DNA of 64,000 nucleotides from an uncultured Gemmatimonadaceae bacterium. GTDB lineage: Bacteria > Gemmatimonadota > Gemmatimonadetes > Gemmatimonadales > GWC2-71-9. The translations under genes and the position numbers were made by a program. How positions within the stretch are numbered: position 1 is the first letter of the stretch; every line of letters starts with the position of its first letter. The DNA is taken from the NCBI GenBank assembly GCA_964465315.1, contig CAYXIK010000007.1, positions 18,840 through 82,839 of the forward strand, in the 5' to 3' direction. Of this stretch, positions 12,921 through 24,385 are shown piece after piece. The notes beneath the pieces were generated by a model. That model searched no databases. It was given only the letters and a program-made list of their open reading frames with translations, and was not told where the DNA came from.

Positions 12921-13340
12921 TTACGGCGCACTCCGCAACTCGGTCAGGAGCCATTCGTCACTCGATTTCCGAAAGCCGAGAAACAGCGTTTCGCGGCGCT
13001 CGTCACTCGTCCCTGCCACGACATACCGCCGTTCCAGCTCGGCGTAGCCGCGTTCCGGCTCCAGCTCGCGTACCGCGCTCACCGTGAGCCGGCGCTCGAC
13101 GCCTCCTCGCAAATGACGGCGGAGCAGCTCGAGCGCCTGAGCCCGATCGACCGGCGCCGACGGGTCAGCGCCTGGAATCTGAAGCACGAGGCTAGGGCCT
13201 TGACCTACAATCGCTTCCACGTTGTGTGCCAGCCACGCCTGGCGCACGCGCTCGGCTGCCTCCGCGAGCGACCCTTGGGCCTGCACATCGGCGACGAGGA
13301 CGAGACTGCCCAGCAGGACCGCTGCCAGCGGGCGACGCAT
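12921..13340 (-). CDS. hypothetical secreted protein (139 aa, signal peptide)
   Basis: Begins MRRPLAAVLLGSLVLVADVQAQG. The start ATG at 13338-13340 overlaps the pyrF stop (TAATG). I recognised no family. The rest of track ORF 12921..13838 overlaps pyrF out of frame. Confidence 0.5.
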   Translation of the reverse strand: MRRPLAAVLLGSLVLVADVQAQGSLAEAAERVRQAWLAHNVEAIVGQGPSLVLQIPGADPSAPVDRAQALELLRRHLRGGVERRLTVSAVRELEPERGYAELERRYVVAGTSDERRETLFLGFRKSSDEWLLTELRSAP

Positions 13341-14014
13341 TAGAGGCTCTCCATCAACCGCTGGTACACCCCAGCCGGGTCCGCGGCCTGCGTGATCGGC
13401 CGGCCGACCACGATGTGGGTCGCCCCGCGTCGGATGGCCTCCCCCGCCGTCACGGTCCGAGCCTGGTCGCCGCTCGCGTCCCCGGGGGCCCGGATGCCGG
13501 GCACCACGATCCAGGGCGCGGGCCCCAGGGCGGAGCGCAGCAACGTCACCTCGCGCCCCGACGCCACGACGCCGCGCAGACCCGCCGTCACCGCCAGCCG
13601 AGCCAGTCGCTCCGTTTCGACGCCGAGATCGGGCACACCGCGGCCCACCACCTGCTCGAACTCGCCGGCGTCGTGCGAGGTGAGCACCGTGACTCCCACG
13701 AGCGCCAGCTCCCCAGCCGCCCCAGCCGCCGCCGCGAGGGCCGTCGGCCCACCCAGCGTGTGCACGGTCGCCATCGCGACCCCCTGCCCCCGAGCGGCCT
13801 CGACCGCGCCGGCGATGACACTGGGGATGTCGTGCCACTTGAGATCGAGGAAGACACGAATGCCGCGCGCCGCGAACTCACGGATGAGTGCCGGTCCCTC
13901 GCGCACGTGCAGCAGCGGGCCGATTTTCGCCCAGCTGAGCCCCGGCAGCCGCGCCGCGAGGGTCAACGCCTCCGACCCGCTCGGCAGATCGAACGCCACG
14001 ATGAGCTCAGCCAT
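13340..14014 (-). CDS. pyrF: orotidine 5'-phosphate decarboxylase
   Basis: 224 aa with the FLDLKWHDIP motif. Confidence 0.9.
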   Translation of the reverse strand: MAELIVAFDLPSGSEALTLAARLPGLSWAKIGPLLHVREGPALIREFAARGIRVFLDLKWHDIPSVIAGAVEAARGQGVAMATVHTLGGPTALAAAAGAAGELALVGVTVLTSHDAGEFEQVVGRGVPDLGVETERLARLAVTAGLRGVVASGREVTLLRSALGPAPWIVVPGIRAPGDASGDQARTVTAGEAIRRGATHIVVGRPITQAADPAGVYQRLMESL

Positions 14015-14846
14015 GCCCGAGCTCCCGCGCGACGCGCTCCGGTAAACGCGGGTCGGCGAGCGCCGCGGTCCCGATGCCCACGAGCGACGCCCCCGCCATC
14101 AAATACTCGCGCGCGTCTCCGGCGGTCCGGATTCCCCCGACCCCCATGATCGGGATGTCGACGGCGTCGTGCACTCTCCGGGTCGCCAGGACGCCGATGG
14201 GGAGGAGCGCGGGTCCGCTCACGCCTCCTGATCCGTTTCCGAGGCGCTCATGGAGCGCCCCGGGTATCGTGTTCACGAGCGTCACCGCGGCCGCGCCTTC
14301 CTGCCGCGCCACTTCGGCCATGCCGACGATGTCCGGGAGCACGGGAGAAAGCTTGACGGCGATCGGTCGCGTTGCCACCGCGCGGCACCGCCGCACGAGG
14401 TCGCGCAGGCCGTCGGGCGTCGCGCCAAACTCGAGCCCTCCCGCACGCGTGTTGGGACACGACGCGTTTACCTCGAAGGCCGTGATGATGGCGAGCTGGG
14501 TGAGACTCTCGATCACACGCACGTAGTCCTCAACCGTCGCGCCCGCGACGTTCACCAGCACCAGCGCGCGCTGGAGGTTGGTCGCGAGCCACGGGAGGTC
14601 GTGTTCGCGCACCGCCTGGAGCCCGGGGTTCGCAAGGCCGACGGCGTTGAGCATACCGCCCGGGAACTCGGCCACGCGCGGCGCGGGGTGCCCTTGGCGG
14701 GGCTCCGGGGTGACCGCCTTGGTCACGATCCCCCCGAGCGCGTCCACGTCGATCACACGGTGCACCTCGTGGCCGAAGCCGGCGGTGCCGGAAGCGAGTA
14801 GGACTGGGTTTTGGAAAGTCGCGTCGAACAGTCGAACCGACCTCAC
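14007..14846 (-). CDS. pyrD: dihydroorotate dehydrogenase (class 1 type)
   Basis: Contains VRSVRLFDATFQNPVLLASGTAGFG...NASCPNT...KLSP...GVGGI. The GTG start at 14844-14846 overlaps the amidase stop (GTGA). The upstream 169 aa of the track ORF are an out-of-frame overlap with the amidase gene. Confidence 0.8.
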   Translation of the reverse strand: MRSVRLFDATFQNPVLLASGTAGFGHEVHRVIDVDALGGIVTKAVTPEPRQGHPAPRVAEFPGGMLNAVGLANPGLQAVREHDLPWLATNLQRALVLVNVAGATVEDYVRVIESLTQLAIITAFEVNASCPNTRAGGLEFGATPDGLRDLVRRCRAVATRPIAVKLSPVLPDIVGMAEVARQEGAAAVTLVNTIPGALHERLGNGSGGVSGPALLPIGVLATRRVHDAVDIPIMGVGGIRTAGDAREYLMAGASLVGIGTAALADPRLPERVARELGHG

Positions 14847-16099
14847 CGCCCCCTCGCAGGGGCGGCGACCGCGAGCTTGCGCTCGAACTCGACGAGGTAC
14901 GCGACGATCCCGTCCGCGATCGCGCTCGCGATCTTGTGCTGACCAAGGCTCGAGGCCAAGAAGGCTCCATCCGCACGATTCGTCGCGAATCCCGTCTCGA
15001 CGAGGATGGCTGGCCGGCGAGCGGTGGTGAGCACCATGAACCCGGCCTGCTGCACACCGTGACCGCCTCCAGGATGAATGCGTGCCACGGAGTCTTGCAC
15101 GAGGGCGGCGAGCTGAGCGGACTCGCGCAGATACTCGTTCACCTGGAGGTCCCGTAGGATGAAGCCCAGCGGGCCCGTCGCCGCGCTCGACGTACCCATC
15201 TCGAACCGGATCGCATCGTTTTCTGTCTGGGCGACACGCTGCTGGTCCTCGGTCTTGGCATCGGACAGGAAGTACGTCTCCACGCCGCTCGCTCGATCGG
15301 CGCGCCGGCCCTCGGGCATCGCGTTCACATGGATGCTCACGAAGAGGTCGCACTCGGCTTTGCAGAACGCCCCGCGATCAGCGAGGTCAATGAGCGTGTC
15401 GCCCGAGCGCGTGAGCGACGCGCCGATGCCGCGGCGCACGAGTTCGGCCCGGAGCAGGCGTCCGATGGCGAGCGTGATGTCCTTCTCGACCAGACCATCC
15501 GGGAAATACCGGCCCGGGTTGCCGGGATCAGCGCCGCCGTGGCCCGGGTCGACCACAATCGTGTGATGCAGGCGCAACCCGGTCATCGGGTTCGGCACAG
15601 TCACAGGCGCGGGGGTGGGGGCGGGAGCGGCGCGCCCCGGAGTTGCGGGAGGTGGGGCTGTGACTCCAGGCGGAGGAGCGGCAGCCACGGCACCGGCCAC
15701 GGGCAGCTCGACGAGACGCGCGCCCGGGCCGGACGCATCCCACCGATAGCGGCCCCCGAGCGCCCGCGGCACGCAGTCGGCCAGCCAGCTCAGCGGCAGG
15801 AAGACGGTGTCGCGGGCCAGGTACGGCTCACCGACGAGCCCGTACACCACGCCGCCGGCGTGCACGAACGGTGCGCCCAGCTGGAATATGAACTCGGTAC
15901 CCGAAAGGGCCACCGCCACCCGCGAGCCTTCGAGCGCCACGGTCAGGCCGAGCGGCGGCCCGAGGAGCGGCGCCGCGATGGCGGCGCTCCCGCGCTCGCT
16001 CGTCACGGGCACGCTCGTCTCTCCCCGTGGCGTGGCGATCACGACGGCTTGCGGCGCCGGCGTCGCGGTCACGAGCGCCAGCCACAGCAGTGCGCTCAC
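14843..16099 (-). CDS. N-acetylmuramoyl-L-alanine amidase (Amidase_3 family)
   Basis: 418 aa with a signal peptide. Contains IVVDPGHGGADPG...FVSIHVNA...GVETYFLS. Confidence 0.85.
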   Translation of the reverse strand: MSALLWLALVTATPAPQAVVIATPRGETSVPVTSERGSAAIAAPLLGPPLGLTVALEGSRVAVALSGTEFIFQLGAPFVHAGGVVYGLVGEPYLARDTVFLPLSWLADCVPRALGGRYRWDASGPGARLVELPVAGAVAAAPPPGVTAPPPATPGRAAPAPTPAPVTVPNPMTGLRLHHTIVVDPGHGGADPGNPGRYFPDGLVEKDITLAIGRLLRAELVRRGIGASLTRSGDTLIDLADRGAFCKAECDLFVSIHVNAMPEGRRADRASGVETYFLSDAKTEDQQRVAQTENDAIRFEMGTSSAATGPLGFILRDLQVNEYLRESAQLAALVQDSVARIHPGGGHGVQQAGFMVLTTARRPAILVETGFATNRADGAFLASSLGQHKIASAIADGIVAYLVEFERKLAVAAPARGR

Positions 16100-16551
16100 G
16101 AGCGCGTGCCCTTGACGCCGCGCGCCAGCTCCCGCTCCGCTACGCGCCGCTTCAGCTCTTCACGTTTGTCGTGCAGTTTCTTGGCCTTCGCCAGCGCGAT
16201 CGCGACCTTCGCGATGCCGTCCTTGAAGTAGAGTTCGAGCGGGACGATCGTGAGTCCCTTCCGGCTGGTTCCGCCGATGAGCTTGCGAATCTCCTGGCCA
16301 TGGAGAAGCAGCTTGCGAGAGCGCGCGGGCGGCGGGTTGTTGTAGCTCCCGGGTCGATACGCCGCGATGGTCATGCCCTCGAGCCACACCTCGCCGCGGC
16401 GGACGTGCGCGTAGGCTTCACCGAGGCTCGCCTTGCCCGCACGGAGCGACTTGACCTCCGTGCCCGTGAGCACCAAGCCTGCCTCCCACGTCTCCAGGAG
16501 ATGGTAGTCATGTCGCGCCCGCGGATTACGGGCGATGGAGACTTTGTCCAC
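16096..16551 (-). CDS. smpB: SsrA-binding protein SmpB
   Basis: 151 aa with a GTG start. Contains IARNPRARHDYHLLETWEAGLVLTGTEVKSLR. Confidence 0.9.
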   Translation of the reverse strand: MDKVSIARNPRARHDYHLLETWEAGLVLTGTEVKSLRAGKASLGEAYAHVRRGEVWLEGMTIAAYRPGSYNNPPPARSRKLLLHGQEIRKLIGGTSRKGLTIVPLELYFKDGIAKVAIALAKAKKLHDKREELKRRVAERELARGVKGTRS

Positions 16552-16647: not shown

Positions 16648-16732
<85 letters not shown>

Positions 16733-16754: not shown

Positions 16755-18191
16755 TCAATACCGCGGCAGCGATCGGTCCACGTTCACGGCCCACGCGTCG
16801 ATGCCGCCGCGCAGACTACGCACCTTCGAAAAGCCCGCGGCCTTCAGGATCTCCAGCGCCTTGAGCGAGCGCGACCCGTGATGGCAGTGGGTCACGATGT
16901 CCTGGTGACCGTCCAGCTCGCCGAGCCGGTCCGGTAGCTCGCTCAGCGGGATGAGCCGCGCACCATCGATGTGCGCGATCGCGTGCTCGTGCGGATCGCG
17001 TACGTCGATCACGAGCAAGTTCGGGTTGCGTTGCCATTCGTCCTTCAGCTGCTCGGCGCTGATCTCCACCCCTTCGTAGGACGGCTCGGCGCCGATGCCG
17101 CAGAACGCCTCATAATCAATCAGCTCGGTGATCGTGGGGCGACGGCCGCAGACCGGGCAGTCGGGATCCTTCTCGAGCCGCAGCTCACGGAATTGCAGCT
17201 TGAGGGCGTCGAACAACACCAGGCGTCCGATGAGCGGCTCGCCCGCGCCGAGGATCAGCTTGATAGTCTCCATCGCCTGGATCGAGCCGATGATGCCGGG
17301 TAGGACGCCAAGGACGCCCCCTTCCGCGCACGACGGGACCAGACCCGGCGGCGGGGGCTCCGCGTAGAGACAGCGGTAGCAGGGACCTCGCTTCGCGTGA
17401 AACACCGATGCCTGTCCCTCGAAGCGGAAAATGGAGCCGTAGACATTCGGCTTGTCGAGCAGGACGCACGCGTCATTCACGAGGTAGCGGGTCGGGAAGT
17501 TGTCCGTCCCGTCCGCCACGACGTCGAACTCACGGATGATGTCGAGAGCGTTCTCGGACGTCAGCCGGGTGTCGAACGGCTCGACCCGCACGTTCGGATT
17601 CAGATCGTGGATGCGCGCCGCCGCGGACTCGAGCTTGGACGTACCGACCGTGGAGGTGCCGTGCAGGATCTGCCGCTGCAGGTTGGTCTTGTCCACGACA
17701 TCGAAATCCACGATGCCGATGGTACCGACGCCAGCGGCCGCCAGATACAGGGCGGCCGGTGATCCCAGTCCCCCTGCCCCTACGAGCAGCACGCGCGCCG
17801 CCTTGAGCTTCTTTTGCCCTTCGACGCCCACGTCCGGGAGGATGAGATGGCGCGAGTAGCGCAGGATCTCTTCGTGCGACAATACGGGCGCCGCAGGCTG
17901 CGCCCCTACGGTAGCCGTCCCTCCCGCGATGCTTGGGATGATCGAGACCGTGTCGCCCGCTTTGACCGGCGTGTCGCGCTGGGCGAGCTGCCGGATATCG
18001 CGGTCGTTCACATACACATTGACAAAGCTGCGCAACCGGCCGTCCTCAGCAAAAAGATGCTGCTTCAACGTCGTGTGCTCACCGGTCAGCCGCTCGAGTA
18101 ACTCTCCCACGCTCCCGGCTTCGACCTGGAGGGCGTCGCGCCCGCCTACGAAGGGACGCAACGGCGTGGGGATCAGGACCGTCACCGCCAT
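16755..18191 (-). CDS. three-domain fusion: MoaD/ThiS/CysO-like beta-grasp sulfur carrier (ends ..IAGG), MoeB/ThiF/MoeZ-type E1-like adenylyltransferase, and a C-terminal rhodanese
   Basis: 478 aa. Residues 1-91 read MAVTVLIPTPLRPFVGG...GDTVSIIPSIAGG, with the Gly-Gly encoded at 17919-17924. Then LRYSRHLILPDVG...VLLVGAGGLGSPAALYLAAAG and CxxC pairs (CYRC, CPVC). The C-terminal rhodanese has the active-site loop THCHHGSRS. Confidence 0.85.
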   Translation of the reverse strand: MAVTVLIPTPLRPFVGGRDALQVEAGSVGELLERLTGEHTTLKQHLFAEDGRLRSFVNVYVNDRDIRQLAQRDTPVKAGDTVSIIPSIAGGTATVGAQPAAPVLSHEEILRYSRHLILPDVGVEGQKKLKAARVLLVGAGGLGSPAALYLAAAGVGTIGIVDFDVVDKTNLQRQILHGTSTVGTSKLESAAARIHDLNPNVRVEPFDTRLTSENALDIIREFDVVADGTDNFPTRYLVNDACVLLDKPNVYGSIFRFEGQASVFHAKRGPCYRCLYAEPPPPGLVPSCAEGGVLGVLPGIIGSIQAMETIKLILGAGEPLIGRLVLFDALKLQFRELRLEKDPDCPVCGRRPTITELIDYEAFCGIGAEPSYEGVEISAEQLKDEWQRNPNLLVIDVRDPHEHAIAHIDGARLIPLSELPDRLGELDGHQDIVTHCHHGSRSLKALEILKAAGFSKVRSLRGGIDAWAVNVDRSLPRY

Positions 18192-18625
18192 ACGACCTTC
18201 CGTTCCTCGTTGGTGATCTCCTCTTCCTCGAATATCCCACGATCGTCCGCGAGAACCCAGCTCTTCAGGTCGGCCGCCCTACCGCGTTCCACGCCAACGA
18301 TGACGTAGGAAAACCTGGGCCAGGCCTGCTCCCGGTCGAACGCCGAGGGCACCGGTGGATGATCGGGATGGGAATGATACACGCCGATCACGTCGAGACC
18401 GTCACGTTCCAGCCGCTCCTCGCCGCGCCTGAACGATTCCGGGTCGATCAAGTAACGATTGCGCGCCGAGTCGGTCCGCCGGTTCACGAGCGGCACCAGC
18501 TGAACCGCGACCTTGTCGTGCCCCTCGACACTCCCGCCGATCAAGCCACAGGCCTCCGCCGGGTAGTCCGCCTCGCCGTGCCGACGAATCGCCGATGCGT
18601 GTCTTGGATCGAGCACGAGTGTCAC
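18182..18625 (-). CDS. JAMM/MPN+ family metallopeptidase (Mec/CysO-peptidase-like)
   Basis: 147 aa. Carries the E (AEACGLIGG) and HSHPDHPPVPSAFD elements, which fit the JAMM motif E-x(n)-H-S-H-x7-S-x2-D. Confidence 0.85.
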   Translation of the reverse strand: MTLVLDPRHASAIRRHGEADYPAEACGLIGGSVEGHDKVAVQLVPLVNRRTDSARNRYLIDPESFRRGEERLERDGLDVIGVYHSHPDHPPVPSAFDREQAWPRFSYVIVGVERGRAADLKSWVLADDRGIFEEEEITNEERKVVWR

Positions 18626-19590
18626 GCGATCTCTCTCTCCCCCGTAAGCCTTCGGGGCTCGCTCAGGTAGCGGGTCCCCGAGTCCGGCGCCACGACGACG
18701 ACGACGTCGGACGATCGGACAGTCGCATGGTCGGACAGGACACGCTCCGCGGCCACGAGTGCCGCCCCCGTGGACCAGCCTACCAACAGTCCAGCTTCCC
18801 TGGCCAGCCGTCTGACGGCGTCCTCGCCGTCCTCCGTCGCCACGAACTCTGTCTGGTCCGCCAGTGCTGGATCGTAAATGCCGGGCACGATCGCGGTCGC
18901 CAGGTGCTTCAGTCCTTCGAGGCCGTGGAACGGCCCGTCGGGCTGCACGGCGACCAGCTCAATCTCTGGCTTCAATTCCTTTAACCGCCGACCGGCGCCC
19001 ATCATCGTGCCGGTGGTACCCAGCCCCGCCACGAAGTGCGTGACCCGGCCCGCCGTCTGGCGCCAGATCTCCTCGGCGGTCGTCACGTAGTGCGACCGGA
19101 CGTTGGCTGGATGGTTGTATTGATCCGCATACCAGTACCGCTCCGGCTCCGCAACCGCGAGCGCGCGAGCCGCCCGGATCGCTCCGTCCGACCCCTCGAG
19201 TGGATCCGTGAAAATGACCTCGGCTCCGTGCGCCTCGAGCAGTGCCTTCCGCTCGGCGCTCGCGTTGCGGGGGACACACACCGTCACGCCGATTCCCGCC
19301 GCGACCCCGAGGGTCGCGTACCCGATGGCGGTATTGCCGCTGGACGCGTCGAGGAGGCGCTTGCGGGGCAACTCGCCCCGCGCGATGCCGTCGCGAAGGA
19401 TGAACAACGCTGGACGGTCCTTGACGGAGCCGCTCGGGTTGAACCATTCACATTTCAGCAGGACGGTCCGACCGTGAGACAGTCGGACGGGCGTGAGCGG
19501 CGTATTACCGACCAGCGCCCAGAGCGCCGGCTCGGCAAACGTCTTGCTGCTCGCACATCCGACCGTTCGACGGTCCGCGGCCGTCTTCAT
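18622..19590 (-). CDS. cysM: PLP-dependent cysteine synthase (CysM/CysK family; by context a sulfur-carrier-thiocarboxylate-dependent CysM)
   Basis: Begins MKTAADRR and contains LVGNTPLTPV...KCEWFNPSGSVKDRPA...SSGNTAIG...GLGTTGTMMG. The ATG at 19588-19590 overlaps the rhodanese stop (ATGA). The upstream 166 aa of the track ORF are out of frame with the rhodanese gene. Confidence 0.85.
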   Translation of the reverse strand: MKTAADRRTVGCASSKTFAEPALWALVGNTPLTPVRLSHGRTVLLKCEWFNPSGSVKDRPALFILRDGIARGELPRKRLLDASSGNTAIGYATLGVAAGIGVTVCVPRNASAERKALLEAHGAEVIFTDPLEGSDGAIRAARALAVAEPERYWYADQYNHPANVRSHYVTTAEEIWRQTAGRVTHFVAGLGTTGTMMGAGRRLKELKPEIELVAVQPDGPFHGLEGLKHLATAIVPGIYDPALADQTEFVATEDGEDAVRRLAREAGLLVGWSTGAALVAAERVLSDHATVRSSDVVVVVAPDSGTRYLSEPRRLTGEREIA

Positions 19591-20438
19591 TCCGCTCCCT
19601 TCACAATCGGCGCACCGACCAGGTTCCCCCACTCCGTCCACGAGCCGTCGTAGTTGCGCACCTTCTTCACGCCCAACAGGTACTTGAGCGCGAACCACGT
19701 GTGGCTCGACCGCTCCCCGATGCGGCAATACGCGATCACTTCGTCCTTGCCATCGATCACCTTCGCGCCTTTGTACAGCTGCATCAGGTCCTCGTACGGC
19801 TTGAAGGTGCCGTCTTGAGCCACCGCCTGACTCCACGGAATGTTCTTCGCGCCCGGAATGTGTCCGGCCCGTTGCGCCGTCTCCGTCATGCCCGGCGGCG
19901 CAATGATTTCGCCGACGAATTCTGGTTTGGAGCGCACGTCGACGAGCGCCGTCTTCTTGGCTTTGAGCGCCTTTTCCACCTCCTGCCGCTTGGCGCGGAT
20001 CGACGCGTTCGCCTTCTTCGGGACCGGGTAGGTGGACCGCCGGACGGTCGCGCGGTCGGACACGAGCGGTCGACCTTCCGCGACCCACTTGGCCCGCCCG
20101 CCGTTCATGAGTTTCGCGTTCGTGTGCCCGTACAATTGCAGCAGCCAGAAGGCGAACGCCGCAAACCAGTTGTTATTGTCGCCGTAGAGAACCACCGTCG
20201 TCTTAGAAGTCACCCCGGCCTCGGAGAGCAGCTTGGCGAAGGCCGTTTTGTCCGGGATGTCCCGGCGCACAGGGTCGTTGAGCTGGGATTGCCAGTTCCA
20301 GCCCACAGCGCCGGCGACGTGGCCGGCATCGTACGCCGTCGTGTCCACGTCGACCTCGATCAGTCGGATGGCCGGATCGCTGAGGTGGGCAGCCACCCAG
20401 TCGGTCGACACGAGCGCCTCGGGATGCGCGTATGGCAC
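19587..20438 (-). CDS. two-domain rhodanese (thiosulfate/3-mercaptopyruvate sulfurtransferase)
   Basis: Contains LVSTDWVAAHL and the active-site loop YCRIGERSSHTWF. The track start is a TTG at 20450. A GTG at 20436-20438 has GGAGG 5 nt upstream and is preferred. Confidence 0.85.
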   Translation of the reverse strand: MPYAHPEALVSTDWVAAHLSDPAIRLIEVDVDTTAYDAGHVAGAVGWNWQSQLNDPVRRDIPDKTAFAKLLSEAGVTSKTTVVLYGDNNNWFAAFAFWLLQLYGHTNAKLMNGGRAKWVAEGRPLVSDRATVRRSTYPVPKKANASIRAKRQEVEKALKAKKTALVDVRSKPEFVGEIIAPPGMTETAQRAGHIPGAKNIPWSQAVAQDGTFKPYEDLMQLYKGAKVIDGKDEVIAYCRIGERSSHTWFALKYLLGVKKVRNYDGSWTEWGNLVGAPIVKGAE

Positions 20439-20513
20439 GGTTGCCTCCAATTCGGTTAAACCCGACAGTGCCAGTCGGGTTTCAGTTGAAAAAAAACAAT
20501 CGGGACGGCCGAA

Positions 20514-20966
20514 CTAGTTCCCGGCCAGAACCCCGGCGATTTGGTACAGCTCGGGTTCGTCGTGCGTGAGATCGGCGAGCGAAATGCCGGCCAGCAAATT
20601 GTTGATCCGCTGCTCGAGCATTCGCCAGACCGGCCGGATGCTACACGACGCATCCGGACTACATCGCTGAGGATCGACGGGATGGAGATCGCAGTTGACT
20701 TCGAAGGTGACGTGCTCGGAGGCCTCGACCACGTCCTTGACGCTGATGGCTTGCGGCTCACGGGCGAGGTGATAGCCACCCTTTGCCCCGCGGACCGACT
20801 CGACCAGCCCGCCACGCCGCAAACGGAGGAGAATCTGCTCCACGTAATCGTGCGGCAACCGCTCCTGCTCGGCAAGCTCACGCGCCGCAACCGGCCCCTG
20901 CCCCGCGCGCTTGGCGAGGTTCAGCGACACGATCAACCCGTACTCGGCCCAGGTGGTGACGCGCAT
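20514..20966 (-). CDS. Rrf2 family transcriptional regulator (IscR/CymR-like)
   Basis: 150 aa, beginning MRVTTWAEYGLIVSLNLAKRAG, and containing GLVESVRGAKGGYHLAR. The C-terminal half has Cys residues (NCDL...RCSPDASC), possibly Fe-S ligands. Confidence 0.85.
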   Translation of the reverse strand: MRVTTWAEYGLIVSLNLAKRAGQGPVAARELAEQERLPHDYVEQILLRLRRGGLVESVRGAKGGYHLAREPQAISVKDVVEASEHVTFEVNCDLHPVDPQRCSPDASCSIRPVWRMLEQRINNLLAGISLADLTHDEPELYQIAGVLAGN

Positions 20967-20972
20967 GGAGGG

Positions 20973-21001
20973 AATATGGGAGTTTGGTTTGCGGGATTCA
21001 A
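20973..21001 (-). promoter_or_regulatory. sigma70-like promoter (TTGAAT-17-CATATT) ending 6 nt before the Rrf2 ATG; predicts a leaderless mRNA
   Basis: The minus strand reads TTGAAT (20996-21001), a 17-nt spacer, CATATT (20973-20978), CCCTCC, then ATG (20964-20966). There is no Shine-Dalgarno sequence. Confidence 0.45.
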
Positions 21002-22032
21002 TGGGACCGCCCGCCGCCCATGCGCGGGCTGACGGAGCCCCCCACCTGCACTCCGAAGACGTTTTCCCCGGAATTGCGCTGCAGCCACAGCAGACGCCCG
21101 TTCAGGTTCCACATGATGCGGCTGCCGTAGAAGTCAGCTCCGATCCCCCCGTGCAGTCCCTGAGCCATACCGCGGTCGGGACCTTGGGAGTACACGCCCG
21201 CTAGGAGGAACCCGGCCTCGCCGTATAGCCGCCCCCAGGGAGGACGGACCGACGTCTCGTAGCCCGGGGCGAAGAGGATCGCGTTCGGCTGGCAGCCGGG
21301 CGCGCAGCTTCCGGCCGTGACCTCCAGGGGCGCGAAGTCGACTTGCAATCCCAGGGTGCCCGATTTCTTCGTATCCCGACGAAACCGGACGCCAACGAAC
21401 GGACCGCGGCCGCGGAGGGGACCGGAGATCGGAATCAAGACGCTCGCGACCGGCCCCAGGGTGCCCTCCAAGAACTCACCCTTGCGCGGAGGCCCCAGGG
21501 CGACCGACGCACTGGCAACGGCCTCGAGCGCCTGAATGTCGCTCCCCGGGACCTGGAGGAACCGGCCTTCGAGTGTGGCCACAGCGGCGTTTCCAGCGTT
21601 GAGCCGCACGCCCAGGCCGAACGCCAGCGCGAGCTGGCTCGTGGTGGAGACGGTGTCGCCGCATAGCAACAGGCACCCCGGCTTCGCTTCGGCCACGCGC
21701 GCGAGGCCGAGGGTCGTGCCGGCAAACGGGGCGAGGACGCCCCGCGCGCCCACGGGATAATAGTAGGAGTCGAGACCGAACAGCGTGAGGCGCCGCGTCC
21801 GGCCGTCGGTCGACAGGTCGTGATACCGGGAGATCGTGAGCCCCGTCTCGCCATCGTCGCCAGTGATGAGGGCGACCGAGCCACCGAACGACGAGAACGT
21901 GTGGCTCACGCCGGAGAGATCTTCCAGGGTCAGCGACGAGTACACCGGGCCGAGGCGGAACCGCCGCTGTGCCTGCGCGGCGCCGACTGCGATTACCGAA
22001 AGGGCCGCCGCGGCAAAGAAGATCTTGCGCAT
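20998..22032 (-). CDS. hypothetical secreted/outer-membrane protein
   Basis: 344 aa with signal peptide MRKIFFAAAALSVIAVGAAQAQ. It is Gly/aromatic-rich with an alternating pattern suggestive of a beta-barrel. I recognised no family. Confidence 0.5.
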   Translation of the reverse strand: MRKIFFAAAALSVIAVGAAQAQRRFRLGPVYSSLTLEDLSGVSHTFSSFGGSVALITGDDGETGLTISRYHDLSTDGRTRRLTLFGLDSYYYPVGARGVLAPFAGTTLGLARVAEAKPGCLLLCGDTVSTTSQLALAFGLGVRLNAGNAAVATLEGRFLQVPGSDIQALEAVASASVALGPPRKGEFLEGTLGPVASVLIPISGPLRGRGPFVGVRFRRDTKKSGTLGLQVDFAPLEVTAGSCAPGCQPNAILFAPGYETSVRPPWGRLYGEAGFLLAGVYSQGPDRGMAQGLHGGIGADFYGSRIMWNLNGRLLWLQRNSGENVFGVQVGGSVSPRMGGGRSH

Positions 22033-22111: not shown

Positions 22112-22534
22112 TTACTTCATCAGCAATCCGACCAGAAGCCCCGCGACGTTCATGCGCACGAGCCAGGACACCGCCGTTGCTTTGAGCAACGGCCGCACCT
22201 TGTCGTACCACACGCCGCTCCCGAGGGTCGAAAGGAGAATAGTCGGAAGCCAGAGGACGGTGGCGAACTCCATGCCCGCGAGCAAGCCGCCGCTCTTCAC
22301 CCAGAGCGCGCCGCGGAACTGTCCGTAGAACCACGCGAACAGCACGCCGAAGACGAGCGCCAGCGCGGCGGACTTGGGCATGTTGGCGGCCATCATCTTC
22401 TTTCCTTCCTCCGGCGTCGGAGGGAACGTCCCGAAGGCCATCATCTCGGGACCGGTGAAGACCTTTCCCCACATCACCCAATCGGCGAGAAACGCGCCCA
22501 CGCCACCAATCAGTCCAGCGACGATCCAGCTCAT
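22112..22534 (-). CDS. small integral membrane protein (DUF1761-like, tentative)
   Basis: 140 aa with about four hydrophobic segments. AAGGAGG lies upstream of the ATG. Confidence 0.5.
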   Translation of the reverse strand: MSWIVAGLIGGVGAFLADWVMWGKVFTGPEMMAFGTFPPTPEEGKKMMAANMPKSAALALVFGVLFAWFYGQFRGALWVKSGGLLAGMEFATVLWLPTILLSTLGSGVWYDKVRPLLKATAVSWLVRMNVAGLLVGLLMK

Positions 22535-22590
22535 GCGGTTCCTCCTTCTGGAGTATGGGACTGCAGACGGCCGTCCTCGCTACGCAATCC

Positions 22591-23997
22591 TCACCTGCGT
22601 TGTCCCGGGACTCCCAACTCGGTCATGGCCAGCAGATCGAGCACTTCTTCGAGGTCCTTTCCCTTCAGCAGGCCTTTCTCGACGACTAGCTGCCGCACCG
22701 TAACGTTCTTTGCCACGGCCTCCTTGGCGAGCTTTGCCGCTTCCGCGTAACCGATCTTGGGAGCCAGCGCCGTGACGAGCGCAGGGCTGCGCTCGAGCCA
22801 GTGCTCGCACTGTGCGCGGTCCGCCTCCACCCCTTCGACGGAACGCTCCGACAGCACGCGGGAAGCGTTCGTAATCAGGAGCATCGTGAACAACAGGTTG
22901 TGCGCGATCACCGGCATCATGACGTTGAGCTCGAGCTGGCCCGCTTCGCTCGCGGTGGCGACGGTGACGTCGTTCCCCAGAGCCTGATAGCAGACCATGT
23001 TCACCATCTCGGCGATCGACGGGTTCACCTTTCCGGGCATGATGCTCGAGCCCGGCTGGACCGGCGGCAGCGTGATCTCGGCAACGCCGGTGCGCGGGCC
23101 CGACGCGAGCAGGCGAAGGTCGCTGGCGATCTTCCCGAGGTCCATGGCGTACGTGCGGAGCGCGCCCGAGAACGCGGCCGCGTCCCCCATCGACTGCATC
23201 AGCTGGACGCGGTCCCTCCCTTCGCGGAGCGCGATCCCGGTGATGGCCCCCAGGTGCTTCACCATGAGTGCGGGGTACGCCGGCTCGGCGTTCAGCCCGG
23301 TTCCTACCGCCGTGCCACCGATCCCGAGCTCGCGCAGCGCATCCGCCGCTCCGGCCACGCGGTCCCGGTTGCGCTCGACAGTGTGGCCGTAGGCGCTGAA
23401 CTCCTGGCCGAGCCGGATCGGTGTGGCGTCCTGCAAATGCGTGCGCCCGGACTTGAGAATGCGGTCGAACGCCTTCCCCTTGGCGAGGAGGGCGGCGGCC
23501 AGCCGTCCCATGGCGTCGAGCAGCAGGGGCAGCTCGGCGAGGGCGGCCAAGCGGATGGCTGTGGGGATCACGTCGTTGGTGGACTGCGCCATGTTGACGT
23601 GGTCGTTCGGGTGCACCGGCGCGTAGGCGCCGCGCTCGGCGCCGAGCAGCTCATTGGCGCGATTGGCAAGGACCTCGTTCGCGTTCATGTTGTGTGAGGT
23701 CCCCGCCCCTGCCTGATAGGGGTCCACGACGAACTGGTCCCGGTGCTGACCGCCCAACACTTCGTCGGCCGCCCGCACGATCGCGTCGGCGAGCTTCGGG
23801 TCGAGGCGACCGGTTTCCTTGTGCGTGAGGGCGGCGGCCTTCTTTATTCGGACGACCGCATCGACGAATGCGGCGAGGGGCCGCAGGTGGGAGATCGGGA
23901 AATTGCGGCGGGCCCGCTCGGTCTGAATCCCGTACAGCGCGTCGGCGGGAACGGCCAGCTCACCCAGGGAGTCACGCTCGACGCGGGTCGCGCTCAT
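22591..23997 (-). CDS. aspA: aspartate ammonia-lyase (class II fumarase/aspartase family)
   Basis: Begins MSATRVERDSLGELAVPADALYGIQTERARRNF. Contains QAGAGTSHNMNANEVLANR, HPNDHVNMAQSTND and GSSIMPGKVNP. The QAGAGTS motif favours aspartase over FumC. The start at 23997 has GGAGG upstream. The track ORF extends to 24198. Confidence 0.85.
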   Translation of the reverse strand: MSATRVERDSLGELAVPADALYGIQTERARRNFPISHLRPLAAFVDAVVRIKKAAALTHKETGRLDPKLADAIVRAADEVLGGQHRDQFVVDPYQAGAGTSHNMNANEVLANRANELLGAERGAYAPVHPNDHVNMAQSTNDVIPTAIRLAALAELPLLLDAMGRLAAALLAKGKAFDRILKSGRTHLQDATPIRLGQEFSAYGHTVERNRDRVAGAADALRELGIGGTAVGTGLNAEPAYPALMVKHLGAITGIALREGRDRVQLMQSMGDAAAFSGALRTYAMDLGKIASDLRLLASGPRTGVAEITLPPVQPGSSIMPGKVNPSIAEMVNMVCYQALGNDVTVATASEAGQLELNVMMPVIAHNLLFTMLLITNASRVLSERSVEGVEADRAQCEHWLERSPALVTALAPKIGYAEAAKLAKEAVAKNVTVRQLVVEKGLLKGKDLEEVLDLLAMTELGVPGQRR

Positions 23998-24052
23998 CGC
24001 CTCCGTCCGTCGTTCGGTCACGGCGCCGTCGGTCTCAAACCAGGAATCGCCC

Positions 24053-24385
24053 ATGGATGCCCAGGATCTCTCGCAGCATCTCGCCGCACGCGCGCGTTTC
24101 TCGGCGACCAAGATGACCAAGATCGACTGCTTCCGCTCCTCGCGGCTCCTGGTCGGTCTCAACTGCTTCGAGCCAGGACAGGAGCAGACGGTGCACACTC
24201 ATCCGGGCGCCGACAAATTCTATTTCGTTGTCAGTGGAAAGGCGAGGTTCGTCGTGGGCAACACGACGCTCGAGGCGGCCTCCGGGGACCTCATCCTCGC
24301 GCCTGAGGGTGTCCGGCACGGGGTGGAGCGCGCGCTCGAGCGAACGATCGTCCTGGTCGGCATCGCGCCCCCGCCGTCCGCATAG
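24053..24385 (+). CDS. cupin domain protein
   Basis: 110 aa, containing GQEQTVHTHPGADKFYFVVSGKARF...ILAPEGVRHGV (cupin motifs 1 and 2). An alternative ATG lies at 24113. Confidence 0.65.
   Translation: MDAQDLSQHLAARARFSATKMTKIDCFRSSRLLVGLNCFEPGQEQTVHTHPGADKFYFVVSGKARFVVGNTTLEAASGDLILAPEGVRHGVERALERTIVLVGIAPPPSA

Follow-up and report, generated by a model that had tools for sequence, protein, structure and literature searches.

A stretch of DNA of 64,000 nucleotides (nt) from an uncultured Gemmatimonadaceae bacterium (GenBank assembly GCA_964465315.1, contig CAYXIK010000007.1, positions 18,840 to 82,839 of the forward strand; hereafter the window) carries on its minus strand a set of five genes (16755-20966). 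They encode an Rrf2-family regulator, a two-domain rhodanese, a CysM-like enzyme, a JAMM/MPN+ zinc peptidase, and a protein of 478 amino acids (aa) in which a ubiquitin-like (Ubl) sulfur carrier is followed in the same chain by an activating enzyme (E1) and a C-terminal rhodanese. We consider it likely that the 478-aa chain is made as a pro-protein, that it belongs to a cysteine pathway of the protein-thiocarboxylate type, and that its carrier is cut free by the adjoining JAMM peptidase. The five genes, their open reading frames (ORFs) and their coordinates are as given in an earlier note on this DNA, and the order described there for the 478-aa protein (a 91-residue carrier domain, then E1, then rhodanese) is borne out by three Pfam domains. 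All genes and features below lie on the minus strand unless stated otherwise.

The first line of evidence concerns the carrier domain of the fusion gene (16755..18191). Pfam ThiS (PF02597) covers residues 5-91 with 46.6 bits against a cut-off of 22.5, and the match spans the whole profile (1-76). Residues 1-91 (17919..18191), ending SIIPSIAGG, align end to end with Amycolatopsis orientalis CysO 4n6e_B (1.5e-17) and Mycobacterium tuberculosis CysO 3dwg_C (2e-15), and Gly90-Gly91 of the fusion falls onto the C-terminal Gly-Gly of both. The two glycine codons (Gly90 at 17922-17924 and Gly91 at 17919-17921) lie exactly at the positions that the earlier note had given, and both are internal in the translated protein.

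The same assignment was reached from a structural model. The AlphaFold run used for fold comparison covered residues 1-125 with an alignment of 53 diverse sequences; it gave a predicted local distance difference test score (pLDDT) of 90-94 over residues 1-88 and below 50 over residues 90-100, with the first E1 helix thereafter. A full-length run (23 sequences, 85-100% identical) had a mean pLDDT of 50 and was excluded from this comparison. In a Foldseek search of the PDB, the top matches were CysO 4n6e_B (template modelling [TM] score 0.90) and M. tuberculosis CysO 3dwg_C and 3dwm_A (TM 0.86-0.87), followed by SAMP1, a Thermus MoaD-related protein, Urm1, and MoaD, with ThiS much lower. The earlier reading depended on the N-terminal domain being a beta-grasp fold; the model and the Foldseek matches both give a beta-grasp, of the CysO kind. 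By sequence and modelled fold, the carrier domain is a CysO orthologue and not a divergent Ubl.

The conservation pattern around the glycines is equally distinctive. Pro86, Ala89, Gly90, and Gly91 are invariant in alignment A2 (sequences 42-82% identical), the tail ...SI[IV]PS[IV]AGG is kept in every phylum, and none of the 56 true fusions described below lacks ...[AS]GG. In these true fusions the linker after Gly-Gly is hypervariable, with 6-31 residues, no common sequence, and a richness in Ala, Pro, Val, and Thr. The linker of the window protein, which its low pLDDT predicts to be disordered, comprises residues 92-103 (TATVGAQPAAPV; 17883..17918), and the proposed scissile bond, Gly91/Thr92, would fall between nucleotides 17919 and 17918. 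An internal translation start that would yield a separate E1 was considered and rejected, as the linker DNA holds no Shine-Dalgarno sequence with a start codon; it was rejected also because internal initiation could not make a free Gly-Gly. As a separate observation, a natural internal Gly-Gly is also seen in a solved structure: in the Thermus thermophilus "MoaD related protein" 1v8c (168 aa), the alignment to the carrier domain runs as far as a Gly-Gly at residue 87, beyond which the chain goes on with another domain.

The second line of evidence comes from the distribution of the fusion. The same three-domain protein was found in all 120 best database matches to the window protein (85-100% identity), and the same three domains in all 120 best matches to a profile of diverse members (60-65% identity); where these proteins are named in the databases, they are called MoeB or MoeZ. 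In 56 independent genome loci, the fusion likewise reads through as a single ORF without interruption. Because it recurs in both sets of matches and in these loci, the fusion reading frame is not an accident of assembly. The N-terminal carrier domain is present in about one in ten of the 150 nearest clusters at 50% identity, the others being plain E1-rhodanese proteins of about 380 aa. The point most overstated in the earlier reading is how unusual such a carrier-E1 fusion would be: the architecture is common in the database and genome scans and had already been catalogued.

In the genome scan, one genome per species was used and the 80 best-scoring (in-frame) loci were kept, so that the ratio of fused to split loci (56:22) is biased. 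The loci come from Gemmatimonadota, Acidobacteriota, Verrucomicrobiota, Ignavibacteria, Bacteroidetes, Kryptoniota, Armatimonadota, Omnitrophota, Betaproteobacteria, Dormibacterota, Eisenbacteria, and Thermoplasmata archaea. When the matches were translated, 22 of 78 "full-length" tblastn matches proved to carry an in-frame stop (TAA, TGA, or TAG) shortly past Gly-Gly. As tblastn reads across stops, the number of "full-length" matches overstates that of true fusions, and these 22 were reclassified as split genes. In the split loci (L041-L047, L051-L053, L057, L062, L065, L068, L070-L073, L075-L079), the junction lies about 270-330 nt into the match; after every stop come a Shine-Dalgarno-like sequence and the ATG or GTG at which the E1 gene starts, and carrier and E1 are in the same frame.

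The split genes bear directly on processing. All 22 split carriers extend 1-17 codons past Gly-Gly (for example GG-R, GG-AKA, GG-CCC, and GG-SCENR), and in none of the 22 does the stop stand directly at Gly-Gly. For this reason the free-standing carriers of the clade would need trimming as well, and the fused form can be seen as an extreme case of a tailed carrier, with the complete E1 as its tail. On the E1 tree, fused and split loci alternate, with at least 5 changes in all from one state to the other.

Other natural variants combine the same modules in other orders. One protein of 634 aa (P0143) reads JAB-ThiS-Rhodanese-ThiF, another of 619 aa (P0148) JAB-(Ubl)-ThiF-Rhodanese, and a third of 486 aa (P0129) has the permuted order ThiS-Rhodanese-ThiF; all three have [AS]GG at the end of the Ubl. 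The three represent independent fusions and permutations of one set of four modules.

These data can be set against the proposal that the N-terminal domain is never released and serves as a permanent docking or regulatory module, either as a tether to CysM or by filling the carrier site of the E1, with the true carrier encoded elsewhere in the genome. Ubl-ThiF fusions with a separate ThiS in the operon have been described, and another role was suggested for the fused domain (Iyer et al. 2006, PMC1779556); unlike the window protein, those fusions pair a non-ThiS Ubl with an extra free ThiS. A carrier-domain hidden Markov model gave no match to a further CysO/ThiS/MoaD-like ORF, either in the window or in the 6 kb around the gene at any of 79 loci; the search covered these surroundings, and a carrier gene may lie farther off in the genome. 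Further against permanent docking, close relatives encode the domain as a separate small protein, the domain resembles CysO and not a divergent Ubl, and the Gly-Gly and the tail before it do not vary in any phylum or in any of three independent domain orders, a constraint that a non-carrier would not need. We therefore regard a permanently attached docking domain as highly unlikely.

The third line of evidence links the fusion to the JAMM peptidase (147 aa, 18182..18625; PF14464, Prok-JAB, 90.7 bits, cut-off 25). The JAMM gene stands immediately upstream in 52 of 55 fused and in all 22 split loci (74/77 together), mostly with CysM before it, and these JAMM-adjacent loci represent all of the phyla named above except Omnitrophota. 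In about 70 loci, spread over many phyla, the gene next upstream of JAMM is CysM, and the order CysM-JAMM-carrier/E1 is syntenic in at least 10 phyla. In nearly all loci of the scan, CysM and JAMM share the strand of the carrier/E1 gene. The Rrf2 and CysA-type rhodanese genes are upstream in Gemmatimonadales only; they occur downstream in a few Acidobacteriota and one betaproteobacterium. The JAMM protein carries EACGL, with its Glu, and HSHPDHPPVPSAFD, and the HxH...S..D motif is present in 76 of 76 orthologues. Its best PDB match is the MPN protein 2kcq (1e-28), with Pyrococcus furiosus JAMM1 5lda more distant, and it matches the NCBIfam desampylase model with E = 2.7e-23, under the cut-off of that model.

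The E1 of the fusion (residues 104-350, 17142..17882) contains ThiF PF00899 at residues 112-347 (287 bits) and aligns with residues 4-249 of Escherichia coli MoeB 1jw9_B (5e-63); the second-best PDB match is 6yub. The motifs GAGGLG, NLQRQ, DGTDN, CYRC, and CPVC align with those of MoeB, and GAGGLG, NLQRQ, DGTDN, Cys288, and the zinc pairs C271/C274 and C345/C348 are invariant in alignment A1. Against NCBIfam models, the fusion scores 508 for NF005902 MoeZ (cut-off 647), 526 for NF005646 MoeB (633), and 482 for NF006444 MoeB (449). Its C-terminal rhodanese domain (residues 379-478 plus the stop codon, 16755..17057) matches PF00581 at residues 379-468 (69.7 bits), and the catalytic Cys436 in HCHHGSRS is invariant in A1 and A2.

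The two-domain rhodanese (19587..20438; PF00581 in two stretches) is a thiosulfate sulfurtransferase of CysA/SseA type with the active-site loop CRIGERS. It aligns end to end with T. thermophilus 1uar (6e-100) and with the putative thiosulfate sulfurtransferase 3aax/3hwi of M. tuberculosis (1e-94), and all 26 of its orthologues have the C[RK]xGxR[ST] loop. This enzyme is the probable sulfur supplier. Its identity is as the earlier note had it, and only the start differs: translation from GGAGG-N5-GTG at 20438 begins MPYAHPE... and matches 1uar (MGYAHPE...) from the first residue on, so that GTG 20438 is most likely the start and not the TTG at 20450 at which the mechanically called ORF begins.

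The CysM-like cysteine synthase (322 aa, 18622..19590) is dependent on pyridoxal 5'-phosphate (PLP) and matches PF00291 with 216 bits. It scores 288 bits for TIGR01138 cysM (below the cut-off of 394) and 231 bits for TIGR01139 cysK (below 351). The PLP lysine, equivalent to M. tuberculosis Lys51, is present in 75 of 76 aligned sequences, and compared to M. tuberculosis CysM (sequence confirmed against 3dwg_A) the enzyme is 37% identical. In M. tuberculosis CysM, Arg220 is reportedly credited with the recognition of O-phosphoserine. The corresponding position is Lys in the window protein and in 73 of 73 orthologues (motif FHGLEGLKH), and Gln in M. tuberculosis CysK1. As a basic residue is kept there, the substrate may be anionic, with O-phosphoserine as no more than a candidate. 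The enzyme is a member of the CysK/CysM family and not an orthologue of M. tuberculosis CysM. Judged by their residues, the JAMM, E1, rhodanese, and PLP enzymes all appear catalytically competent.

From these parts we infer the following route. The rhodanese, CysM, JAMM, and fusion proteins would be translated from genes with overlapping stop and start codons. The JAMM peptidase would hydrolyse Gly91-Thr92 in the disordered linker, giving a 91-residue carrier with a free Gly-Gly and a complete E1-rhodanese. The E1 would then adenylate the C-terminal glycine of the carrier, and a persulfide on Cys436, for which the probable donor is either the CysA-type thiosulfate sulfurtransferase encoded upstream or a cysteine desulfurase, would turn the adenylate into a thiocarboxylate. 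The CysM-like enzyme would transfer the thiocarboxylate sulfur to PLP-bound aminoacrylate formed from O-phosphoserine or O-acetylserine, and an S-to-N shift would produce carrier-Gly-Gly-Cys. The same JAMM peptidase would cut after Gly-Gly again, releasing free cysteine and regenerating the carrier. The Rrf2 protein, made from what may be a leaderless mRNA, would probably sense iron-sulfur (Fe-S) or redox status and control the gene set. Because both JAMM steps are the same reaction, the fusion would have been cheap to evolve.

Several observations weigh against this account. First, three fused loci have no adjacent JAMM gene and have CysM directly upstream: in two from Thermoplasmata (L048 and L054) the JAMM gene lies 5 kb downstream, and in one from Omnitrophota (L060) there is none within 6 kb. 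Second, since a JAMM peptidase would be needed anyway for the release of cysteine, its presence alone is no proof that it matures the fusion. Third, M. tuberculosis CysM (5.5e-45) is a poorer match to the PLP enzyme than are M. tuberculosis CysK1 (2.6e-55) and E. coli CysM (about 1e-55), and, as the PLP enzyme reaches neither the cysM nor the cysK cut-off, its substrates are assigned from context alone. Fourth, the DNA of the region is present in rock-metagenome sequencing runs, and the runs that hold it are all DNA runs of rock metagenomes, with no RNA runs among them. Fifth, the E1-rhodanese may mainly serve the synthesis of molybdopterin or thiamine, as a bare version described below suggests.

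The first two of these points bear on who does the cutting. The fusion could be cut after Gly-Gly by another protease or by self-processing, with the JAMM peptidase recycling carrier-Cys or stripping the carrier from modified proteins. Mec-type JAMM enzymes reportedly act in the release of cysteine, a role of this kind. For M. tuberculosis MoaX, the cutting protease has yet to be identified (PMC4326299), and the three loci without an adjacent JAMM gene fit such a division of labour. However, recycling and maturation involve the same chemistry on the peptide bond after the carrier Gly-Gly, JAMM enzymes are able to cut linear fusions (PMC4443979), the peptidase is itself fused to carrier-E1 in P0143 and P0148, and the JAMM gene is adjacent in 74 of 77 loci. 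A different protease is thus improbable. The earlier note had named the JAMM enzyme as the obvious candidate for the release of the carrier; this is the best-supported reading on the comparative data and on the precedent of MoaD-MoaE fusions, and the cleavage itself is inferred.

The bare version of the E1-rhodanese is found in another member of the Gemmatimonadetes (L029:4927-7741). This locus has the same flanks as the window (an outer-membrane-protein-like gene, tRNA-Leu, smpB, and an amidase gene) and is devoid of Rrf2, rhodanese, CysM, JAMM, and the carrier domain; it retains an E1-rhodanese of 382 aa, 83% identical, which begins at the linker with MHEDLPQLSHEE. Between the two genomes, the entire block, Rrf2 through carrier, thus shows a clean presence/absence polymorphism. 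Carrier, JAMM, and CysM are present or absent as a unit, and the E1-rhodanese is able to exist without them.

This polymorphism also lends something to the proposal that the main function of the system is not to make cysteine but to provide molybdopterin or thiamine, or to tag proteins in the manner of sampylation or TtuB. The database names MoeB and MoeZ and the resemblance of the JAMM protein to a haloarchaeal desampylase point the same way. MoaD-MoeBR fusions have been filed under cofactor biosynthesis (PMC11237513), and M. tuberculosis MoeZR acts on both CysO and MoaD (PMC3227635). On the other hand, moaE, moaA, moaC, thiG, and thiH are all absent from the operon, an enzyme of the cysteine synthase family is the conserved partner in nearly all loci, and the carrier is nearest to CysO, with MoaD and ThiS far down the match lists. 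We judge a main role in cofactor synthesis or tagging to be quite unlikely. It is in part compatible with the cysteine pathway proposed here, as the released E1 may serve several carriers.

A more far-reaching possibility, to which we give little credence, is that the fusion is a two-way zymogen. The uncut carrier would fill the E1's own carrier site, and one JAMM cut would both make the carrier and open the E1, which would then also serve MoaD and ThiS, like M. tuberculosis MoeZR. Were this so, one zinc peptidase under an Fe-S-sensing Rrf2 would gate all thiocarboxylate-dependent sulfur flux, including that to cysteine, molybdopterin, and thiamine.

Compared to the CysO-CysM-Mec+-MoeZR pathway of M. 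tuberculosis, to which the earlier note had likened it, the gene set shows a resemblance that holds at the level of parts. Both have a CysO-type carrier, an E1 with a C-terminal rhodanese, a JAMM peptidase, and a PLP enzyme of the CysK/CysM family, and in both regulation would be tied to redox or Fe-S status (here suggested by Rrf2). The likeness does not extend to the PLP enzyme as an orthologue of M. tuberculosis CysM, given the 37% identity, the Lys for Arg220, and the score under the cysM cut-off. Furthermore, CysO of M. tuberculosis is made as a protein of its own with Gly-Gly at its end, whereas the window carrier is the N-terminal domain of the E1, and moeZ is unlinked in M. tuberculosis. 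The window operon has a CysA-type rhodanese and Rrf2 and, unlike that of M. tuberculosis, is without ClpS or helical-protein genes.

Tailed carriers trimmed by a neighbouring JAMM peptidase are known from QbsE/QbsD of the quinolobactin pathway and HcyS/HcyD of the Wolinella methionine pathway. As in the window, a JAMM gene stands beside a carrier whose Gly-Gly is not terminal at translation, and the 22 split relatives are exactly such cases. In contrast, the tail of QbsE and HcyS is one or two residues long and here it is an enzyme of 387 residues, and the pathway product is another one. Eukaryotic ubiquitin precursors (polyubiquitin and ubiquitin-ribosomal protein fusions) are alike in that a beta-grasp modifier is freed after Gly-Gly by a peptidase. 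Their processing enzymes are mostly cysteine proteases, and we know of no such precursor in which the fusion partner is an E1. Uba4/MOCS3 shares the E1-rhodanese layout (6yub).

The gene content of the window agrees with operon type 4c of Iyer, Burroughs and Aravind (2006, PMC1779556), which comprises ThiS/MoaD, E1-rhodanese, JAB, and cysteine synthase and for which the same coupling of Ubl-type sulfur transfer with cysteine synthesis was predicted. The window has this gene set, without thiamine or molybdopterin genes, and with the Ubl as a domain instead of a separate gene. Type 4c was reported for Acidobacteria, Chloroflexi, Bacteroidetes, and others, with the carrier listed as an operon component and, unlike here, not as fused to the E1-rhodanese (PMC1779556).

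The closest precedents for cleavage are MoaD-MoaE fusions. HvJAMM1 cuts an engineered linear SAMP1-MoaE exactly after Gly-Gly, in vitro and in vivo (PMC4443979), and M. tuberculosis MoaX, which was left unprocessed by E. coli, is active only once cut after Gly82 (PMC4326299). In the account of Yang 2018 cited in PMC11237513, the Deinococcus radiodurans JAMM DR0402 cleaves a MoaD-MoaE fusion. In these proteins, as in the fusion studied here, the carrier lies upstream of a partner enzyme; they are inactive until cut after Gly-Gly, and the cutter, where identified, is a JAMM enzyme. The partner differs, being the sulfur acceptor MoaE of the molybdopterin pathway and not the activating E1.

Fusions of carrier and E1 have been seen before in surveys. 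A 2024 catalogue of Archaea lists MoaD-MoeB and MoaD-MoeBR fusions under molybdenum cofactor synthesis, and the archaeal MoeBR fusions are >55% identical to acidobacterial proteins (PMC11237513). Their order, Ubl-E1(-rhodanese), is that of the window, and their likeness to acidobacterial proteins matches the Thermoplasmata loci L048 and L054. Ubl-E1-TBP was noted in Thaumarchaeota in 2010 (PMC2948915). Unlike the present analysis, these two surveys make no link from the Ubl-E1(-rhodanese) fusion to CysM, JAMM, or processing.

The gene set is led by the Rrf2-family transcription regulator (150 aa, 20514..20966; PF02082 115 bits and TIGR00738 116 bits, above cut-off). Its promoter-like element (20973..21001) consists of a -35 TTGAAT (20996-21001), a spacer of 17 nt, and a -10 CATATT (20973-20978), followed by the 6 nt CCCTCC, in which there is no Shine-Dalgarno sequence, and the ATG. 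The TTGAAT contains the TGA stop of the upstream 344-aa gene. In 21 aligned Gemmatimonadales loci, whose upstream flanks are unrelated, the geometry TTGAAT-17-[C/T]ATATT-6-ATG is conserved, with ATATT invariant at 6 nt (once 7) from the ATG. A sigma-70 scan had missed this promoter because it matches the consensus at 8 of 12 positions, against a threshold of 9/12. The conserved geometry without a Shine-Dalgarno sequence supports a leaderless Rrf2 mRNA, as the earlier note had suspected.

Three cysteines of the Rrf2 protein (C92, C102, and C108) are conserved in 24 of 24 orthologues, as in Fe-S-binding Rrf2 proteins of the IscR/NsrR/RirA type, and its scores lie under the cut-offs of IscR, CymR, and SufR-type models; an Fe-S cluster is probably bound by the protein. 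The gap that separates the Rrf2 stop from the start of the rhodanese gene contains a conserved palindrome (20458..20482), AAACCCGAC-N7-GTCGGGTTT, with a T8 tract just upstream on the minus strand. Its arms are kept in 20 loci and its 7-nt centre is variable, and it is the sole perfect copy in the window. No compensatory changes were found in the arms across the 20 loci, and as an RNA hairpin the element is unremarkable (z = -1.67). The palindrome is a candidate Rrf2 operator and presumably resembles the IscR type-1 site.

The genes from rhodanese to fusion are joined by overlaps between the stop of one and the start of the next (ATGA, GTGA, and ATGGCGGTGA). The ATG of CysM at 19590 overlaps the rhodanese stop (ATGA), the CysM stop overlaps the JAMM start (GTGA), and the JAMM stop lies 10 nt inside the fusion ORF. 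A longer ORF (20088..18622) was rejected as an artefact of GC-rich DNA (67% GC): the spurious extension adds 166 codons upstream of ATG 19590 and overlaps the rhodanese gene in another frame (19591-20088), and the real CysM gene is 19590..18622. Beyond the fusion gene lie a tRNA-Leu(CAG) on the plus strand (16648-16731) and then smpB. An Rfam search returned this tRNA-Leu only, with no riboswitch, and a terminator scan found none. The upstream gene (20998..22032, 344 aa) encodes a protein with a signal-peptide-like N-terminus, possibly an outer-membrane protein. By eye, from translations only, the flanks (13340-16551 and 22112-24198) look housekeeping-like, with pyrF- and pyrD-like genes, an N-acetylmuramoyl-L-alanine amidase-like gene, smpB, and genes for a 140-aa membrane protein and a lyase of the aspartase/fumarase class.

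The individual elements of this system are already known: the operon type since 2006, MoaD-MoeB(R) fusions since 2024, and the cleavage of linear MoaD-MoaE fusions by JAMM enzymes from experiment. The present finding is thus not a new principle, as JAMM cutting of carrier-enzyme fusions is established for molybdopterin synthase. Our literature searches found no explicit CysO-MoeZ fusion and, outside the 2009 review of the E1-like superfamily, which they did not cover, no paper in which the Ubl-E1-rhodanese fusion is connected with the CysM/JAMM set or its processing is put to the test.

To our knowledge, nearly all work on cysteine synthesis through protein thiocarboxylates has been done in mycobacteria. 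Rarely cultured soil phyla, such as Gemmatimonadota, Acidobacteriota, Verrucomicrobiota, Armatimonadota, and others, commonly have a related gene set, and in most of these the carrier and its activating enzyme are made as one chain. The carrier and its likely role in cysteine synthesis have been hidden because the databases name the proteins MoeB or MoeZ. The natural series, from a tail of 1-17 residues through the fusion to E1 to a peptidase-carrier-E1 in a single chain, offers a ready test of how a Gly-Gly tail is recognised by JAMM enzymes, and may show how ubiquitin-style precursor processing originated before eukaryotes.

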